Source: Enterobacteria phage KhF3. Taken from it: 64,000 bases of DNA. The stretch is from the sequence record KT184315.1. One strand, written 5' to 3'. The notes below the pieces were generated by a model. The model had not been told where the DNA came from. It saw only the letters and a program-made list of their open reading frames with translations, and searched no databases. Positions 3,923 through 27,698 of the stretch are shown here, in pieces. Position numbers and translations under genes: made by a program. Numbering within the stretch: position 1 is the stretch's first letter; every line of letters starts with the position of its first letter.

Positions 3923-3998
3923 TGGAGAATCCGAAGGGACTCGAACCCTTATAAACCTGTTTTGCAGACAGGAACATAGCCATTTCTGTCACGGATTC
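3923..3998 (-). tRNA. tRNA-Cys (anticodon GCA)
   Basis: Manual cloverleaf on reverse complement: 7-bp acceptor, T-loop, anticodon loop CTGCAAA, CCA encoded. Confidence 0.7.
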
Positions 3999-4002
3999 AA
4001 AT

Positions 4003-4095
4003 TGGAGGAAGATACCAGACTTGAACTGGTACACCGATTTCTCAGCTACTGGCAGTTTAGCAAACTGCTCCCTTACCTTTTAGGGTTAATCTTCC
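4003..4095 (-). tRNA. tRNA-Ser (anticodon GCT), class II
   Basis: Acceptor GGAAGAT/ATCTTCC, anticodon stem GCAGT/ACTGC loop TTGCTAA, long variable arm. Confidence 0.7.
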
Positions 4096-4096
4096 A

Positions 4097-4831
4097 TTAT
4101 TTCTGTAATGCGTTCTTCATTTCTGGTGTTGCAATAGTGTCAATCACACCAGTTTTACAAGCATCATCAAACCAGTCTGGTAAGATACCTGCTAAGAACC
4201 CATTGATATTCGTTTTAAGGTACTCTGCAATAAGAGCAGCTTCTTCTTCAATCATCTGCACAACTTCATCTGCATAAGCTGTAATCTTCGAAATACCTTC
4301 ATTAATCTTACTAACAGCTTGGTTAGCTAAATCAGAAATAGTATCAAGACCTTTGTCAATAGCATCTTGTAAGTCACTTAATACATCATTAACGACATCT
4401 AGTGCACTGTTAATTGTGTCAATAGCTTTTTGACCATATTCTGTAGCAACGCCCATAATACCACTAAACGGTGTACAGCCAACTTGTTCCCCTGCTGCAC
4501 CCATAACATTGGAATACCCCTTTGCTACCTGCATACGTGATGAAAACTCATCAATAGACTTTTGACCATAGTCTGTTAAGGTCTTAGTAGTCGCTGTAGT
4601 GCTTGTAAGGCTTGTTGTAAAGCTGTTTAGAAGGACTGTTGTAAGTCCAGCAGCAACAAGTTTCTCCTTCATTGTAGGGTCTGTTACAGAGCTAATAGAA
4701 CTTACAAGTGATGTAGAGGCAGCTACGGTTCCACCGAGAACTGCTGCACCAGTAATAAGGGGATTAGAAAACCCTCTACCGGTTTTTAAGAGATTAAAAA
4801 TCTCCTTACCTTGTTCTGTCATCTCTTTCAT
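4097..4831 (-). CDS. hypothetical Ser/Thr-rich protein
   Basis: Track ORF 4097..4894 uses GTG inside tRNA-Phe; in-frame ATG at 4829-4831 with AAAGGTG RBS avoids the overlap. Confidence 0.5.
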   Translation of the reverse strand: MKEMTEQGKEIFNLLKTGRGFSNPLITGAAVLGGTVAASTSLVSSISSVTDPTMKEKLVAAGLTTVLLNSFTTSLTSTTATTKTLTDYGQKSIDEFSSRMQVAKGYSNVMGAAGEQVGCTPFSGIMGVATEYGQKAIDTINSALDVVNDVLSDLQDAIDKGLDTISDLANQAVSKINEGISKITAYADEVVQMIEEEAALIAEYLKTNINGFLAGILPDWFDDACKTGVIDTIATPEMKNALQK

Positions 4832-4847
4832 TAAGCACCTTTGTAAT

Positions 4848-4924
4848 TGGTAGTCCAGTGGGATTTGAACCCTCTTCTCATGTTTTTCAGACACGCGCTT
4901 TAACCATATAAGCTACTTGGACTA
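4848..4924 (-). tRNA. tRNA-Phe (anticodon GAA)
   Basis: Acceptor TAGTCCA/TGGACTA, anticodon loop CTGAAAA; D-arm imperfect. Confidence 0.6.
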
Positions 4925-4929
4925 TAAAT

Positions 4930-5005
4930 TGGGGTGACCTACGGGATTTGAACCCGTATAGACCATGTTCACAGCATGGGTCATTACCATTTATGATAAG
5001 GCCAC
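4930..5005 (-). tRNA. tRNA-His (anticodon GTG)
   Basis: Anticodon stem CCATG/CATGG loop CTGTGAA; CCA encoded. Confidence 0.7.
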
Positions 5006-5036
5006 ATTTAAGGACTCTCGTAAGAATCCTTAGAAG

Positions 5037-5112
5037 TGGCAGCGGCATAAGGATTTGAACCTTAATAGGACAGCTTCAGAGACTGTTGCATTGCCAGTTA
5101 TGCTATACCGCT
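5037..5112 (-). tRNA. tRNA-Gln (anticodon CTG)
   Basis: Full cloverleaf, anticodon loop CTCTGAA. Confidence 0.7.
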
Positions 5113-5117
5113 AAATT

Positions 5118-5196
5118 TGGTACTCCATATCGGATTCGAACCGATACATAACACAGATTTTAAGTCTGGCCTCTCTGCCAATTGGAGTAATGGAGC
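5118..5196 (-). tRNA. tRNA with anticodon TAA (Leu by anticodon), short variable arm
   Basis: Acceptor GCTCCAT/ATGGAGT, T-arm ATCGG-TTCGAAT-CCGAT, anticodon loop CTTAAAA, discriminator A, 76 nt without CCA. Confidence 0.55.
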
Positions 5197-5198
5197 AT

Positions 5199-5274
5199 TG
5201 GCGGGGGATGTTGGAATTGAACCAACTTCTTCGATTTCAAAGACCGAGGTTTTAACCTTGTAAACTAATCCCCT
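5199..5274 (-). tRNA. tRNA-Gln (anticodon TTG)
   Basis: Anticodon stem TCGGT/ATCGA loop CTTTGAA; position 1-72 mismatch. Confidence 0.7.
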
Positions 5275-5282
5275 TTAAATCT

Positions 5283-5840
5283 TTACTTTCTCAGTGGATG
5301 AATAAAGAATGCCAACATAACTCTTTCCCTTGAGAATGCTCTTTCTTCTGGGACAACACTTTTTAGTTTCCATCCAATATAAATTCTCCAGTAAAACTGT
5401 TTACCAAAGACTTTAATTGATGGGATAAAGGCGAATAATCCCCAAGCATTACTGTTCCACATTAGGAGATAACCAGTCTGATTATCTTCAGGGTCAGAAC
5501 TTACGTTGATATTACCTTTCCACTTAGTAACATCTTTTACATCTCTTCCTAATACATGGTAAGAGAAGTTATAAGCTTTGTTTCTCCAGAGCCATCCGAC
5601 TCTTTGCATGTAGACGCCTAGTTTACCAATCCATCTAATATTAGCCCATCTTTTAACGTGACCTTCATCACCATCAATTGGGTTGTCATATGTCTCCATC
5701 CATCTGAACCCGAAAGGTAAGTGTCCTTTCTTCTCACTGTAGAATGGAACTACAAAAGGTGCTAAGATAACTGCTAAGATTGCTGCAAATGGTTCTAACA
5801 AAGCTAAGAAAATCCATGAAGCATACTTTAAGTATCTCAT
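5283..5840 (-). CDS. hypothetical membrane protein
   Basis: 185-aa ORF with hydrophobic N-terminus, between tRNA blocks. Confidence 0.5.
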   Translation of the reverse strand: MRYLKYASWIFLALLEPFAAILAVILAPFVVPFYSEKKGHLPFGFRWMETYDNPIDGDEGHVKRWANIRWIGKLGVYMQRVGWLWRNKAYNFSYHVLGRDVKDVTKWKGNINVSSDPEDNQTGYLLMWNSNAWGLFAFIPSIKVFGKQFYWRIYIGWKLKSVVPEERAFSRERVMLAFFIHPLRK

Positions 5841-6079
5841 TGTCTAATCCTCGTAAGGAGGTAAATGTTATTATTCGTTTCTAAACCTTCTGGTAAAACT
5901 ATCTCAAAAATAACACTCTTCAGATGTCTACCACCAAAACAATCACGTATAAATCTTTCTACTCTAGCGGGGTCACATAAGTATCCCACTTTTAAGAAAA
6001 TGTGGTGTTCAACACCAATGACCCTGACAAACTCAATACTCTCACAGTTTTCATGTTCAACTACTGTTAATGTTTGCAT
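5837..6079 (-). CDS. hypothetical protein
   Basis: 80-aa ORF, stop overlaps downstream start. Confidence 0.4.
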   Translation of the reverse strand: MQTLTVVEHENCESIEFVRVIGVEHHIFLKVGYLCDPARVERFIRDCFGGRHLKSVIFEIVLPEGLETNNNIYLLTRIRQ

Positions 6080-6096
6080 AGTATCACCTTTTTATC

Positions 6097-6172
6097 TGGC
6101 GCAGGATAAGGGATTCGAACCCCTATTAACAGCTTCGTAGACTGTTGCTCTTTCCATTTGAACTAATCCTGC
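6097..6172 (-). tRNA. tRNA-Arg (anticodon ACG)
   Basis: Anticodon stem ACAGT/GCTGT loop CTACGAA. Confidence 0.7.
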
Positions 6173-6177
6173 AAAAT

Positions 6178-6255
6178 TGGTGTTCCAAGACGGATTCGAA
6201 CCGTCACTAATACAAGGTTTGAGCTTGCATCCTCTGCCAATTGGGATACTGGAAC
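6178..6255 (-). tRNA. tRNA with anticodon CAA (Leu by anticodon), short variable arm
   Basis: Acceptor GTTCCAG/TTGGAAC, anticodon stem GCAAG/CTTGT loop CTCAAAC, T-arm GACGG-TTCGAAT-CCGTC, discriminator A. Confidence 0.55.
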
Positions 6256-6256
6256 A

Positions 6257-6331
6257 TGGTACTCACTAAAGGACTTGAACCTTTTTCTTCATCTTGTAAG
6301 GGTGATGTTTTACCATATAAACTAAGCGAGT
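6257..6331 (-). tRNA. tRNA-Val (anticodon TAC)
   Basis: Anticodon loop CTTACAA, D-stem GTTT/AAAC, discriminator A. Confidence 0.65.
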
Positions 6332-6427
6332 ATGAAAGAGGTCTGGAGTTGTGCCGCTAACTCAACTCCGTGGAATTTGTTACGGTCTTCAGTTGACTCA
6401 AAGCGGTCTTTCACTTGACCTCTGAAT
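6332..6427 (-). other. structured spacer element (not a canonical tRNA)
   Basis: No T-loop; ends pair GAGGTC/GACCTC; internal 7-bp hairpin GGAGTTG/CAACTCC; contains GAAGACCGT motif shared with other spacers. Confidence 0.3.
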
Positions 6428-6503
6428 TGGTGCTCCCACAAGGACTCGAACCCTGATAAGTTGCTTACAAGGCAACCGTAATAACCAATTATACGATAGG
6501 AGC
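6428..6503 (-). tRNA. tRNA-Thr (anticodon TGT)
   Basis: Anticodon stem GTTGC/GCAAC loop CTTGTAA. Confidence 0.7.
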
Positions 6504-6510
6504 ATTAATT

Positions 6511-6585
6511 TGGAGCATCCAGAGGGAATCGAACCCTCAACCTCAGTTTGGAAGACTGTAATTTTCCCGTTTAAACTATGGATGC
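6511..6585 (-). tRNA. tRNA-Gly (anticodon TCC)
   Basis: Anticodon loop CTTCCAA, discriminator T. Confidence 0.65.
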
Positions 6586-6591
6586 ACTAAT

Positions 6592-6667
6592 TGGTGGAGT
6601 CACCGAGAATTGAACTCGGTTCCCAAGTTTGCAAAACTCGAATTTTAACCATATAAACTATGACCCC
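6592..6667 (-). tRNA. tRNA-Ala (anticodon TGC)
   Basis: Anticodon loop TTTGCAA; G3-U70 pair in acceptor stem. Confidence 0.7.
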
Positions 6668-6673
6668 ATTGTT

Positions 6674-6749
6674 TGGTACAGGTGGAGGGAATTGAACCCA
6701 TCGTCTTACTGATTAAGAGTCAGCCGCATAACCATTTTGCTACACCTGC
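6674..6749 (-). tRNA. tRNA-Lys (anticodon CTT)
   Basis: Acceptor and anticodon arm fold, but T-stem is only 3 GC pairs. Confidence 0.5.
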
Positions 6750-6756
6750 ATTAATT

Positions 6757-6833
6757 TGGTACACCTAGAGAGATTCGAACTCACACTGAGCAGATTCTAA
6801 GTCTGCTGCCTCTACCAGTTGGGCTATAGGTGC
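6757..6833 (-). tRNA. tRNA with anticodon TAG (Leu by anticodon), short variable arm
   Basis: Acceptor GCACCTA/TAGGTGT, anticodon stem GCAGA/TCTGC loop CTTAGAA, 5-nt variable loop, 74 nt without CCA. Confidence 0.55.
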
Positions 6834-7086
6834 ATTAAATCTTTTTAGAGAACTTCTAAGAACCTAAGCAACAAGGCTCCACAACAAGCTGTAATAACCT
6901 TAGAAGCCCTCTAAAAAGACCTAAATAGGTCTTTGCATAGTCTTGTTTAATCCGGTGACTAGAACCTTTGGAGAGCTTGATATTATCTCTTCTCCGTGAC
7001 ACCTACTAGGTGCTTTGACAGTGTACGACAATACACGAGGGATAAACCGACAATGCGAACAAGCATGGACGGAGTAAATCTTATTA

Positions 7087-7176
7087 GGCGGTAAGTAAAG
7101 GAGTCGAACCCTCACCGTATCTCTACAGTGGCAACTGTTTTCAAGACAGTTTGGCTACCATTAGCCGCTACCTACC
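7087..7176 (-). tRNA. tRNA-Ser (anticodon TGA), class II
   Basis: Acceptor GGTAGGT/ACTTACC, anticodon stem ACTGT/ACAGT loop CTTGAAA, long variable arm. Confidence 0.55.
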
Positions 7177-7189
7177 CCTAATAAGACTT

Positions 7190-7272
7190 TGGCATGGGAC
7201 GGAGGAGTTGAACCCCTTTGAAACGGTTTTGGAGGCCGTTGCTCATGCCTTAGAGTCTTAACATCGTCCCAT
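7190..7272 (-). tRNA. tRNA-Trp (anticodon CCA)
   Basis: Acceptor ATGGGAC/GTCCCAT, anticodon loop CTCCAAA; D region longer than usual. Confidence 0.5.
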
Positions 7273-7414
7273 ATTATAATTCGAAGCTTACCCTGTTATC
7301 TCAACACTGTCAAGCTTCTTCTCAGATTATTTACATGTTCTGGAAAACATGAGATACAGACCACCTCCCTACAGGAAGACCCGCTAAGGCCGTCTAAGTA
7401 ATCTGCTAACTATT

Positions 7415-7491
7415 TGGTACACCCTACAGGATTCGAACCTGTAACTAACGATTTAGAAGACCGTTGCTCTATCCAATTGAACTAAGGGTGC
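7415..7491 (-). tRNA. tRNA-Arg (anticodon TCT)
   Basis: Anticodon stem ACGGT/ATCGT loop CTTCTAA. Confidence 0.7.
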
Positions 7492-7737
7492 ATTATCTTT
7501 AAAGACTCTCTTAGAAAGCCCTTAAAGATGCCCACCTTATTAATCATACCGTGGGCGAGTACGCCAAATTCTTTGATGAGGGATTGGAAGACCTCACTGG
7601 TGTTTAGCCTATCAAGCTACTGCCAGAAAAACATTGTCGTTTGCATTTATTTTAAATTTGCAAAATAGACGCTACGCAACGAAAACTAAGGTTACTATAA
7701 AGTAGTCACATCTCAATGTCAACAACTTTATTGAAAT

Positions 7738-7813
7738 TGGTACTGGTAGGTGGAATCGAACCACCGATGTTCCCTTATCAGGGGAGTGTTATAACCTTCT
7801 TAACTATACCAGC
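7738..7813 (-). tRNA. tRNA-Ile (anticodon GAT)
   Basis: Anticodon loop CTGATAA, T-stem GGTGG/CCACC. Confidence 0.65.
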
Positions 7814-7814
7814 T

Positions 7815-7891
7815 TGGAGGTTCAGATGGGAATCGAACCCACATTCATAGGGCTTATGAGACCCTTGCATTACCTTATCTGCGACTGAACC
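7815..7891 (-). tRNA. tRNA-Met (anticodon CAT), elongator-like
   Basis: Acceptor GGTTCAG/CTGAACC fully paired, anticodon loop CTCATAA. Confidence 0.65.
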
Positions 7892-7969
7892 AGAATAAGT
7901 ACCCTAGTTAGAGAAACTGTTGAGTGGGTGTTTCCAGCCGCGCAGGTGTTTCTCAGTTAAGGGTGAATT

Positions 7970-8045
7970 TGGTAGAAGTGGAGGGATTCGAACCCATCGC
8001 CTGTCAGATTAAAAGTCTGCCGCATCACCATTCTGCTACACTTCC
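7970..8045 (-). tRNA. tRNA-Lys (anticodon TTT)
   Basis: Anticodon loop CTTTTAA; T-stem weak, same T-arm sequence as the CTT copy. Confidence 0.55.
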
Positions 8046-8050
8046 ATTAA

Positions 8051-8192
8051 ATTATCTTTGTAGATAAGCTACCCAGACTTGCTTAAGGTCTGTAGCGATG
8101 TGCCTTTTTGGGTTTAAATCTAGAATTTACCCTTTCACCCTTTGTGGTCGCATACTCACAGGTAAGCTTAATAACTTATCTACAAAGATAAT
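8051..8192. repeat. perfect 17-bp inverted repeat flanking about 108 bp
   Basis: ATTATCTTTGTAGATAA at 8051-8067 and its exact reverse complement at 8176-8192. Confidence 0.8.
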
Positions 8193-8194
8193 TA

Positions 8195-8326
8195 CCAGAC
8201 CGTTGTTTATCATCTTAAGTGCTACCATTACACCAACTCGACATCTGCCGAGTGAAGGAATCGAACCTTCGCCTTTTCTTTACCGGAGAAATAGATTGTT
8301 TAAGTTTTGCTGTAAACGGTCTTCTG
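8195..8326 (-). ncRNA. candidate structured small RNA with tRNA-like module
   Basis: Closing stem CCAGACCG / CGGTCTTCTG; inside, T-arm GAAGG-TTCGATT-CCTTC followed by an ACTCGGC/GTCGAGT hairpin and a D-arm-like GTGTAATGGTAGCAC; order is not that of a canonical tRNA. Confidence 0.35.
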
Positions 8327-8339
8327 TAAAATTGTTGAG

Positions 8340-8418
8340 CCAGACCAAGTTTTATAAATTTTTTCAAAATTAAATTGGCTTGAAAATATCATACGTACTT
8401 GCTGAATTTGGTCTTCTG
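8340..8418 (-). other. inverted-repeat-bounded spacer element
   Basis: CCAGACCAAG ... TTGCTGAATTTGGTCTTCTG. Confidence 0.3.
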
Positions 8419-8505
8419 CTCCTTTAAAGAATACTCGTAAGAACTCTTTAAGGGAGGGGCTAAAATAGCCCTCTCAAACATCATTTTGAAATACTTATTA
8501 TAATT

Positions 8506-8583
8506 TGGCGGTTACGAAGGGATTTGAACCCTCATCATCTCCCGTGACAGGGGAGTATTTTAACCAGATTAAACTACATAACC
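8506..8583 (-). tRNA. tRNA-Asp (anticodon GTC)
   Basis: Anticodon stem CTCCC/GGGAG loop CTGTCAC, CCA encoded. Confidence 0.7.
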
Positions 8584-8589
8584 TTTATT

Positions 8590-8677
8590 TGGTGTGCCGT
8601 GTAGGAGTCGAACCTACCGAGTCTCAATGACAAGGGATTTACAGTCCCCACCGCTACCATCTACGGGATAACGACAC
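8590..8677 (-). tRNA. tRNA-Tyr (anticodon GTA), class II
   Basis: Anticodon loop CTGTAAA, long variable arm, T-stem GTAGG/CCTAC. Confidence 0.65.
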
Positions 8678-8686
8678 ATTTAAATT

Positions 8687-8763
8687 TGGCGGTTAGTCAG
8701 GGATTCGAACCCTGTGCCATTCGCTTAACAGGCGACCGCACATACCTTATGTGCTTCCTAACC
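8687..8763 (-). tRNA. tRNA-Asn (anticodon GTT)
   Basis: Anticodon loop CTGTTAA, T-arm CAGGG-TTCGAAT-CCCTG. Confidence 0.65.
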
Positions 8764-8774
8764 TTAATACATTG

Positions 8775-8834
8775 CCAGACCGTGTTTTTTCTTTTATCCG
8801 CAAAAAGTATTTTGTTGCTGAATACGGTCTTCTG
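8775..8834 (-). other. inverted-repeat-bounded spacer element
   Basis: CCAGACCG ... TTGCTGAATACGGTCTTCTG. Confidence 0.3.
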
Positions 8835-8840
8835 CAAAAT

Positions 8841-26912: not shown

Positions 26913-27698
26913 TTAGTTCTTTGCGTCTAAGAAGGTAACTTCTGGTGAAGAGAAGATTGCCTCGATATCCTCATCAGTTCTTGCATAGATATAAGCTTCT
27001 GCATCACTACCAAATGTTACAGCAATTCTGTGATTGCTCTTTGACAGGTGGGTAACTAGAGCGTTACTTAGAGACATCTTTTCAACCGGAGGGTTACTTT
27101 GATGTATCTTACCTTTTCTTCGTCTGAAGAGGGTAACTGCATTATCCGTGAACACAACTACACCTGCAAAGTATTCTGGTTCACAGTAGTTCTCCCAACC
27201 TGAGCGTAACTTGTGGTACATCTCTCCTTCATAGACATATAGATAAACATCTACACTCTTCATCACCTGATTAATGATAACTGTGACGGCTTGAGGGTCT
27301 AGCCCACCGATACCTGCACCAATCATAGGTAACCCGACTTTCTTCAACTGATTGACTTCACAGTATCTGTTAAGCTGTTTCAAAGATGACTCTAAAGCAC
27401 TGTATCGGGCATCTTTACCAGTCTTAAGCTGAGTGTAAAGGTTAGCTATACGACCTTGTTTTAAACGTGCTACAGAGAAATTACCCAGTAAATTTTCACA
27501 GGGTTTGTGTCCTATACCACCTGCATATAGATAAACTTCTGTATCGGTCTCATATGCTTTTGGGTAAAGTTTAGAAATCTTGTCAGCGATACCTGCACCC
27601 ATTAAATTCATACAGTTGCAACCGTGACCGATGATGTCAAACTTACCTTTATCAAATGCGGCAAAGATATCACCATTGATTATTTTTACAATACCCAT
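26913..27698 (-). CDS. macro domain-containing protein (ADP-ribose binding or hydrolase)
   Basis: N-terminal GDIFAAF ... IGHGCNCMNLMGAGIADKI matches the macro-domain glycine-rich signature. Confidence 0.6.
   Translation of the reverse strand: MGIVKIINGDIFAAFDKGKFDIIGHGCNCMNLMGAGIADKISKLYPKAYETDTEVYLYAGGIGHKPCENLLGNFSVARLKQGRIANLYTQLKTGKDARYSALESSLKQLNRYCEVNQLKKVGLPMIGAGIGGLDPQAVTVIINQVMKSVDVYLYVYEGEMYHKLRSGWENYCEPEYFAGVVVFTDNAVTLFRRRKGKIHQSNPPVEKMSLSNALVTHLSKSNHRIAVTFGSDAEAYIYARTDEDIEAIFSSPEVTFLDAKN

Follow-up and report, generated by a model that had tools for sequence, protein, structure and literature searches.

Three tRNA-Leu genes with short variable regions

Enterobacteria phage KhF3 (sequence record KT184315.1) is a Felix O1-like phage of the genus Felixounavirus. 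The 64,000-nucleotide (nt) stretch of its DNA that we analyzed (here called the window) carries an array of 26 transfer RNA (tRNA) genes at positions 3923 to 9170, and three members of this array have leucine anticodons but none of the long variable arm expected of a tRNA-Leu. All 26 genes called by ARAGORN lie on the minus strand, and 24 also pass the gathering score (29 bits) of the Rfam tRNA model (RF00005). Phage XTG1, the nearest relative, shares 99.7% identity over the array region, to which 385 phage records match, and the genes of the array follow one another in the window as they do in XTG1 and in the type phage, Felix O1. The records of these two phages already annotate the three genes as tRNA-Leu. 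An earlier reading of the letters by themselves (the original prediction) had pointed to the missing arms and had offered two interpretations: the molecules could be unusual tRNAs for leucine, or their identity could be another one.

The three genes, each called by both ARAGORN and Rfam, are tRNA-Leu(UAA) at positions 5118 to 5196 (47.5 bits in Rfam), tRNA-Leu(CAA) at 6178 to 6255 (44.0 bits), and tRNA-Leu(UAG) at 6757 to 6833 (57.3 bits), all on the minus strand. Their Rfam E-values range from 5e-7 to 1e-9, and all three exceed the gathering score. In this order, the genes are 79, 78, and 77 nt long with the encoded CCA end and 76, 75, and 74 nt without it, and their variable regions (counted as positions 44 to 48) comprise 7, 6, and 5 nt. 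As drawn by ARAGORN, each is a cloverleaf with an acceptor stem of 7 base pairs (bp), a 3-bp D stem, and anticodon and T stems of 5 bp. The D loop is 11 nt long (CAAYTGGYAGA), and the discriminator base is A73 throughout. The first pair is G1.U72 in Leu(UAA) and Leu(UAG) and G1-C72 in Leu(CAA). The anticodon loops (CUUAAAA, CUCAAAC, and CUUAGAA for UAA, CAA, and UAG, respectively) are 7 nt long with U33 present, and Leu(UAG) has A37. The T loop is TTCGAAT in all three, with T54, T55, C56, and A58, and the elbow pairs G18:U55, G19:C56, and U54:A58 are probably retained. These calls assign exactly the anticodons that the original prediction had given for the loci (TAA, CAA, and TAG), and they agree with its cloverleaves of 74 to 76 nt, variable loops of 5 to 7 nt, discriminator A, and common D-arm features.

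Class II tRNAs have a variable region of more than 10 nt that forms a stem-loop, and the variable regions of the three Leu tRNAs stay below this length. Their D arms are nonetheless those of a class II tRNA-Leu, with a 3-bp D stem, unpaired positions 13 and 22, and an 11-nt D loop; a Leu anticodon combined with a variable loop of about 5 nt, which all three possess, characterizes type I tRNA-Leu. Among the 26 tRNAs of the window, long variable arms occur only in tRNA-Ser(GCU) (4003 to 4095), tRNA-Ser(UGA) (7087 to 7176), and tRNA-Tyr(GUA) (8590 to 8677), all called by ARAGORN on the minus strand, as had been anticipated for the class II members of the array. ARAGORN found no long-arm tRNA-Leu among these 26 tRNAs or in the complete XTG1 genome, in which the same three short tRNAs are the only Leu tRNAs; therefore, no canonical long-arm gene is hidden outside the window.

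Single-sequence folding returned a cloverleaf for Leu(CAA) and Leu(UAG), with modest z-scores across the three genes (−2.2, −0.3, and −1.7) that we regard as uninformative. Because this folding signal is weak, the cloverleaf structure rests on the covariance model and on comparative evidence rather than on thermodynamics.

A short-arm tRNA-Leu family in phages and bacteria

A sensitive blastn search of a phage collection with Leu(UAA) found nearly identical copies throughout Felixounavirus, and unrelated phages gave weaker matches that still covered the full length. ARAGORN calls three Leu tRNAs of 74 to 77 nt in Lactobacillus phage Bacchae (Herelleviridae), beside long-arm Ser tRNAs, two of 74 to 75 nt in Myxococcus phage Mx1, and three of 77 nt with a G13-type D arm in Aeromonas phage AhSzw-1, a relative of T5. 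In T4 and T5 themselves, the Leu tRNAs have long arms. We then scanned viral contigs with a D-arm string and T loop, CCAAYTGGYAGAG...GTTCGAATC, allowing a short or a long spacer between them. Matches fell in at least 120 contigs, and although long arms were allowed, every match listed spans 50 to 53 nt. The motif-bearing tRNAs at these loci (134 among the matches listed) are all 74 to 79 nt long; 126 of them (about 94%) have Leu anticodons, with all six represented, and the rest are Thr, Trp, and Phe.

The same motif was used to scan bacteria, with one genome per species, and was found at 120 or more genome loci. The matches listed include at least 83 short Leu tRNAs and at least 37 ordinary tRNA-Trp genes. 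Many of the short Leu tRNAs are single genes in Mycobacterium, Nocardia, Pseudonocardia, Amycolatopsis, and other Actinomycetota, and others lie in arrays of 9 to 34 tRNA genes in diverse bacteria. The single-copy actinobacterial genes are mostly CAA and have U48 and A73 (e.g., loci L144, L152, L156, and L165), and the D arm of the window's Leu(CAA), GTATCCCAATTGGCAGAGGA, is almost base for base that of single-copy mycobacterial type I Leu(CAA) genes. Type I tRNA-Leu may thus be a regular feature of Actinomycetota rather than a rarity of Streptomyces, and a published remark by which long loops are confined to some of the Leu tRNAs of M. tuberculosis (PMC11541572) is consistent with the actinobacterial short-arm genes. 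Collectively, these matches assign the three phage genes, by sequence, to a large short-arm Leu family that is common in phages and also present in some bacteria. The D-arm motif is not Leu specific in bacteria, where housekeeping tRNA-Trp genes carry it at 37 of the 120 genome loci listed. A Trp-like fold or identity was considered for the family and rejected: the Trp genes match the motif in the register of a 4-bp D stem, whereas the Leu family covaries in the 3-bp register and has A73.

To characterize the family, we used the 135 of the 192 unique short Leu tRNAs from the viral loci listed that are 74 nt long and align without gaps. Standard pairs fill 97.6% of the stem cells in these 74-mers, a share that drops to 41 to 45% if the 3′ partner is displaced by one or two positions. 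Three to six standard pair types occur at every one of the 20 stem pairs, including D-stem pairs 10:25, 11:24, and 12:23. U8 (134 of 135), U48 (133 of 135), and A73 (134 of 135) are nearly invariant, and these positions lie outside the search motif. A profile built from the 74-mers scored Leu(UAG) at 66.2 bits, Leu(UAA) at 39.4 bits, and Leu(CAA) at 39.3 bits, and the other 23 tRNAs of the window at 15.7 bits or less.

Conservation of Leu(UAA) and Leu(CAA) exceeds that of their surroundings. Of the 272 phage records that match Leu(UAA), 215 do so with at least 99% identity, whereas the surrounding 4.4-kb array region is conserved to this degree in only 2 of 385. Likewise, Leu(CAA) and Leu(UAA) are 100% identical in Felix O1, whose open reading frames (ORFs) average 92.9% identity to the window. 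Purifying selection and covariation together show that the family is selected as tRNA.

The UAG slot of the array is more variable. In Felix O1 and Salmonella phage FG1m it holds a different short-arm tRNA-Leu(UAG), GGGAGATTGATGGTAATTGGTAAACC..., instead of the C13-type gene of the window, and since the slot can hold another short-arm allele, alleles have been swapped within the array. A chimeric tRNA is also present in FG1m, with a 5′ part from Leu(CAA), a 3′ part from Leu(UAA), and a mismatched acceptor stem, and the intervening genes are lost; the chimera apparently arose by recombination at the common T loop (UAG-allele and chimera loci: Felix O1, 26975 to 27052; FG1m, 4421 to 4498 and 4999 to 5076).

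Leucine identity, charging, and loss of the arm

The leucine identity set of E. coli leucyl-tRNA synthetase (LeuRS) comprises A73, A15-U48, G18G19, A20a, and the elbow pairs (Giegé and Eriani review, PMC9976931). According to the same review, this identity is independent of the anticodon and of the long arm, arm-less variants remain active, and seryl-tRNA synthetase (SerRS), in contrast, depends on the long arm. As comparators, the five Leu isoacceptor genes of E. coli K-12 and the Leu genes of T4 and T5 were drawn with the same program. U8, A14, A15, G18, G19, A20a, U48, and A73 are all present in the three phage tRNAs, and their register is that of the five E. coli isoacceptors. The comparators (leuZ, leuX, leuW, leuU, leuQPV, and the T4 and T5 genes) share the 3-bp D stem, the 11-nt D loop with A14 A15 Y16 Y17 G18 G19 N20 A20a, U48 just 5′ of the T stem, and A73, and the D arm, U48, and A73 are thus common to KhF3, E. 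coli, T4, and T5. Anticodons UAA, CAA, and UAG are also present among the E. coli isoacceptors, and the G1.U72 pair of leuZ recurs in the phage Leu(UAA) and Leu(UAG). Differences are few: the variable region is a stem-loop of 12 to 17 nt in E. coli, T4, and T5 but 5 to 7 nt in KhF3, position 13 is G in the former and C in the latter, and leuW has G37 where the phage Leu(UAG) has A37. A blastn search of 5,426 E. coli genomes with Leu(UAA) gave no match at E-values up to 10, a result that is uninformative on the closest host tRNA for a 79-nt query in 28 Gb.

A sample of viral tRNAs that was drawn independently of Leu, by picking contigs with a tRNA-Tyr pattern and measuring the variable region of every tRNA in the stretches retrieved, allowed the identity set to be viewed against other tRNAs. 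The signature "U8, A14 A15 NN G18 G19 N A20a N A22, A73" was present in 25 of its 64 Leu tRNAs, short and long, versus 12 of 944 other tRNAs. As read from their genes, the three phage tRNAs hold the reported leucine determinants and miss only the part reported to be dispensable.

An accompanying phage LeuRS was considered and rejected: tblastn with E. coli LeuRS found none in the window (best E = 0.22), and LeuRS-like sequences are scarce in phage records (74 of 50,697). In the absence of a phage enzyme, charging would be left to that of the host. We consider it likely that the three genes encode genuine, functional type I Leu tRNAs that are charged by host LeuRS and for which the arm is dispensable. 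The tRNAs would be transcribed from the minus-strand array with their CCA ends encoded, and host LeuRS would load leucine on them. Recognition would proceed via A73, the tertiary pairs U8:A14 and A15:U48, G18G19 and A20a as placed in an 11-nt D loop that a 3-bp D stem closes, and the D-loop/T-loop elbow, all of them retained, rather than via the variable arm. In decoding, anticodon UAA would read UUA and UUG, CAA would read UUG, and UAG would read CUA as well as other CUN codons. Charging of Felix O1-type Leu tRNAs by E. coli or Salmonella LeuRS is, in our estimate, also quite probable, chiefly in view of the identity set that they have kept and of the strong purifying selection on their genes.

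The codon usage of the phage, whose GC content is 38.7%, bears on what such tRNAs would contribute. Leu codons in the ORFs of the window are divided among TTA (24%), TTG (15%), CTT (29%), CTA (10%), and CTG (16%), and TTA, TTG, CTT, and CTA together account for 78% of phage Leu codons. In E. coli, CTG makes up about half of all Leu codons, and the major Leu tRNA reads CUG. The three anticodons thus serve codons for which phage demand most exceeds host supply, an argument that is weakened by the use of textbook values for the E. coli side.

Since LeuRS ignores the anticodon, a Leu anticodon alone is no proof of identity. The three tRNAs could carry an amino acid other than leucine, so that UUA, UUG, and CUA would be recoded or ambiguous; UAA and CAA differ from the Phe anticodon GAA at position 34 only, and the D-loop string resembles that of some bacterial tRNA-Trp genes. 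The codons themselves indicate otherwise. Across 6,697 codons aligned between the window and Felix O1, 65 TTA, TTG, or CTA codons have changed, and 63 of these became other Leu codons, including CTG, CTT, and CTC, which are read by other tRNAs; the remaining 2 became Ile or Met. Because these codons interchange with other Leu codons, we conclude that UUA, UUG, and CUA are not recoded. Nor is an identity element of another synthetase read in the sequences. Pair 3:70 is U-A, U-A, and A-U in the three tRNAs, rather than the G3:U70 of alanyl-tRNA synthetase, and the long arm and G73 of SerRS are lacking. Whereas tRNA-Trp combines anticodon CCA with G73, the phage tRNAs have UAA, CAA, and UAG with A73, and their D stem covaries as 3 bp with an 11-nt loop (the Leu register), not in the 4-bp Trp register. 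Recoding is thus highly improbable. Of the two interpretations originally offered, that of unusual Leu tRNAs is supported by the Leu-type D arm, U48, A73, and membership in a family that mostly has Leu anticodons, and that of a different identity is not supported.

Several observations weigh against charging by the host enzyme. In the work of Fan et al. (2019, PMC6614811), the type I tRNA-Leu(CAA) that Streptomyces coelicolor naturally has was not charged in vitro by E. coli LeuRS, and the same paper describes this enzyme as charging type II tRNA-Leu only, with a leucine-specific domain that favors a large variable loop; it links certain variants of this domain to type I charging. Leu(UAA) has a C27.U43 mismatch, and its minimum-energy fold is predicted not to be a cloverleaf. 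In addition, the search motif itself accounts for part of the D-loop conservation in the viral family, which was left uncounted as evidence. The failure in vitro, together with the weak anticodon stem and aberrant predicted fold of Leu(UAA), could mean that these are tRNA-shaped RNAs that host LeuRS charges poorly or not at all, persisting as relics, decoys, regulators, or a source of fragments; FG1m, moreover, tolerates a CAA/UAA chimera with a mismatched acceptor stem and the deletion of the genes between. Such RNAs are difficult to reconcile with genes that are almost invariant across more than 200 genomes with diverging flanks. Dense compensatory change in all four stems across the wider family, combined with near-invariant A73 and U48, is the signature of a charged, decoding tRNA; furthermore, the anticodons fit codons heavily used by the phage, and CCA is encoded. 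We therefore regard poorly charged or uncharged RNAs as quite unlikely. As for the in vitro failure of E. coli LeuRS, we conjecture that it may be explained by position 48, which is C in the S. coelicolor tRNA but U in the phage tRNAs and in nearly the whole viral family; U48 is the partner of A15 that E. coli LeuRS reportedly requires.

Arm loss extends well beyond Felixounavirus. In the Tyr-picked viral sample, 15 of the 64 Leu tRNAs have variable regions of 5 to 9 nt (exactly 5 nt in 12), and the other 49 have at least 11 nt. Roughly a quarter of Leu tRNAs are thus short-armed in this sample, which is small and limited to contigs with tRNA arrays, compared with 1 of its 68 Ser tRNAs. The short Leu tRNAs include the C13 type seen in the window and a G13 type that resembles the D arms of T5 and E. 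coli. Some viral contigs mix short and long Leu tRNAs, and one (L249) has variable regions of 5, 7, and 9 nt. There are at least three short-armed D-arm lineages, namely, the C13 type, the G13 type (AhSzw-1), and the UAG allele of Felix O1, and because several D-arm types are short-armed, the long arm appears to have been lost more than once. The premise of the original prediction that bacterial and T4 tRNA-Leu are class II consequently holds for E. coli, T4, and T5 but is too general in view of S. coelicolor and of this viral sample.

The simplest reading is that the arm is dispensable for bacterial LeuRS and that deletions are tolerated. Bacterial tyrosyl-tRNA synthetase (TyrRS), like SerRS, uses the long arm, and retention of the Ser and Tyr arms in the phage array fits this requirement. 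The arm could be lost from Leu tRNAs, and not from those for Ser or Tyr, if bacterial LeuRS is the one synthetase of class II tRNAs that does not need it. Alternatively, the loss may be adaptive, allowing escape from host toxins or abortive-infection effectors that choose class II tRNAs by their arm, or from cross-charging by SerRS or TyrRS in new hosts. This alternative is compatible with leucine identity and competes only with the notion that a dispensable arm was lost neutrally. Its appeal lies in how frequent and recurrent the loss is in phages, as seen in the excess of short-armed Leu over Ser tRNAs, the multiple D-arm lineages, and the three short lengths in contig L249. Furthermore, class II tRNAs are reported to be the likely preference of the abortive-infection toxin AbiEii (bioRxiv 10.64898/2026.01.19.700257). 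However, the literature we consulted contains no toxin that targets E. coli tRNA-Leu through its arm, and MenT3 favors Ser over Leu tRNAs. In the same host, the Leu tRNAs of T4 and T5 have kept their long arms, and in many Actinomycetota the short type is a single-copy chromosomal gene for which defense evasion is no obvious driver. An adaptive loss thus seems rather doubtful, though if it did occur, an arm-less Leu tRNA could still be charged wherever a bacterial LeuRS relies on A73 and the elbow and would be invisible to MenT3- or AbiEii-like enzymes.

Neighboring elements and relation to known type I tRNA-Leu

Several other features lie within or beside the array. In some public records, neighboring array members are labeled "tRNA-OTHER". 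At 7196 to 7270 on the minus strand is a tRNA-shaped sequence with the anticodon loop CUCCAAA (Trp anticodon CCA) and an aberrant D region, which has no ARAGORN call and weakly matches a tRNA-Sec model (23 bits, E = 0.29). Neither the window nor XTG1 has a tRNA-Trp gene called by ARAGORN, and this sequence may be a degenerate or unusual tRNA-Trp. In the 26-gene array of AhSzw-1 (L004), ARAGORN calls a tRNA labeled Pyl whose CUA anticodon could make it an amber suppressor, and another whose anticodon has 2 nt (1120 to 1194 and 2026 to 2099).

Four copies of a module, CAGAAGACC(R)NNTWCAGCAA, lie between the tRNA genes at 8307 to 8334, 8399 to 8419, 8815 to 8842, and 8982 to 9009, with partners at 8191 to 8211 and 8771 to 8791. 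As read from the sequence, a complementary GGTCTGG closes all four modules downstream; the repeat search listed a partner for two. A long hairpin at 8191 to 8335 (minus strand) encloses a permuted tRNA-like unit in which a T arm, an acceptor 3′ strand, a loop, an acceptor 5′ strand, and a D arm follow one another; it includes a subthreshold tRNA match at 8253 to 8303 (22 bits), and its layout is that of bacterial Y RNAs (YrlA). A 471-amino-acid ORF (9336 to 10751, minus strand) immediately upstream of the array contains DUF2828 and DUF7788 domains and is annotated as an "RNA-binding protein" in Felix O1. In Myxococcus phage Mx1, a TROVE (Ro60-like) protein is encoded beside the tRNAs. No Y RNA family of Rfam matched the repeated structured elements between the tRNAs, even at a permissive threshold. 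The modules and the ORF may constitute a phage Ro/Y-RNA-like system.

Long inverted repeats adjoin tRNA genes at 6835 to 6924 and 8050 to 8193 (minus strand); one, with 26-nt arms, lies immediately 5′ of tRNA-Leu(UAG), and in another the arms measure 22 nt and are 95% complementary. Short hairpins of the "CTTTAAAGA...TCTTTAAAG" type recur between the tRNAs on the minus strand, at about 5010 to 5040, 7500 to 7530, and 8430 to 8470. These inverted repeats and hairpins may be processing or transcription signals. Promoter-like sites occur on the minus strand at 9317 to 9289, 9226 to 9197, and 7722 to 7694, and their total count is not above chance.

Type I tRNA-Leu is already established in animal mitochondria and in S. 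coelicolor, and the kind of molecule encoded by KhF3 is not new. A close counterpart is the natural type I tRNA-Leu(CAA) of S. coelicolor, which is charged by its own LeuRS (Fan et al. 2019, NAR, PMC6614811) and, like the phage tRNAs, pairs a Leu anticodon with a short variable loop, in its case of 5 nt. It coexists with type II Leu tRNAs in one cytoplasm, as the phage tRNAs do in an infected cell, and the D arm GTATCCCAAYTGGCAGAGGA of the window's Leu(CAA) recurs in actinobacterial single-copy Leu(CAA) genes. The S. coelicolor tRNA differs in having C48 (loop ACAGC), and A73 is not an identity element for S. coelicolor LeuRS, unlike in the E. coli set (PMC6614811). The phage genes, for their part, lie in a mobile 26-gene array, have three anticodons, and are the only Leu tRNAs of the phage. 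Natural bacterial type I tRNA-Leu has been called rare (PMC6614811).

Three further systems resemble the phage tRNAs in part. Engineered arm-deleted or minimal E. coli Leu tRNAs (Asahara 1993, 1998; Tocchini-Valentini 2000; Larkin 2002), as summarized in PMC9976931, indicate that LeuRS works without the arm if A73 and the D-loop/T-loop tertiary elements stay; judging from that summary, the set kept is exactly that of the phage tRNAs, although the engineered tRNAs are laboratory constructs and not natural genes. Animal mitochondrial tRNA-Leu also has a short variable region, and A73 and A14, which the phage tRNAs likewise possess, are its identity elements (PMC9976931). Unlike the phage tRNAs, however, which keep canonical G18G19 and a canonical T loop, it has a dedicated mitochondrial LeuRS and is often floppy, with a degenerate elbow. 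Finally, a short-loop tRNA-Leu(TAG) is mentioned in passing in a horizontally acquired mycobacterial tRNA cluster (Behra et al. 2019, PMC6582537). It likewise combines a short arm with a mobile tRNA array and coexists with a long-arm isoacceptor of the host, but it resides in a bacterial genome, and the paper draws no phage link and gives no analysis of identity elements. A 2023 review describes tRNA-Leu as long-armed everywhere except in animal mitochondria (PMC9976931). In the open-access literature, we found no prior note of the missing arm in phage Leu tRNAs, of its frequency, or of the actinobacterial kinship, which is no proof of absence.

These data indicate that a classical group of enterobacterial phages relies solely on short-armed Leu tRNAs. 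They also carry a warning for annotation, where filters based on length or class mis-score short-arm Leu genes. With the phage tRNAs, the published claim that type II is the only kind of tRNA-Leu charged by E. coli LeuRS can be confronted: if they are charged as proposed, this enzyme would, against that claim, also accept a natural tRNA-Leu of type I, and the view that the long arm is absent only from animal mitochondria would need revision for a sizeable fraction of the virosphere. The short-arm family spans phages of several bacterial phyla, mobile tRNA arrays, and Actinomycetota, and it provides a natural, sequence-diverse test set for arm-independent recognition by LeuRS.

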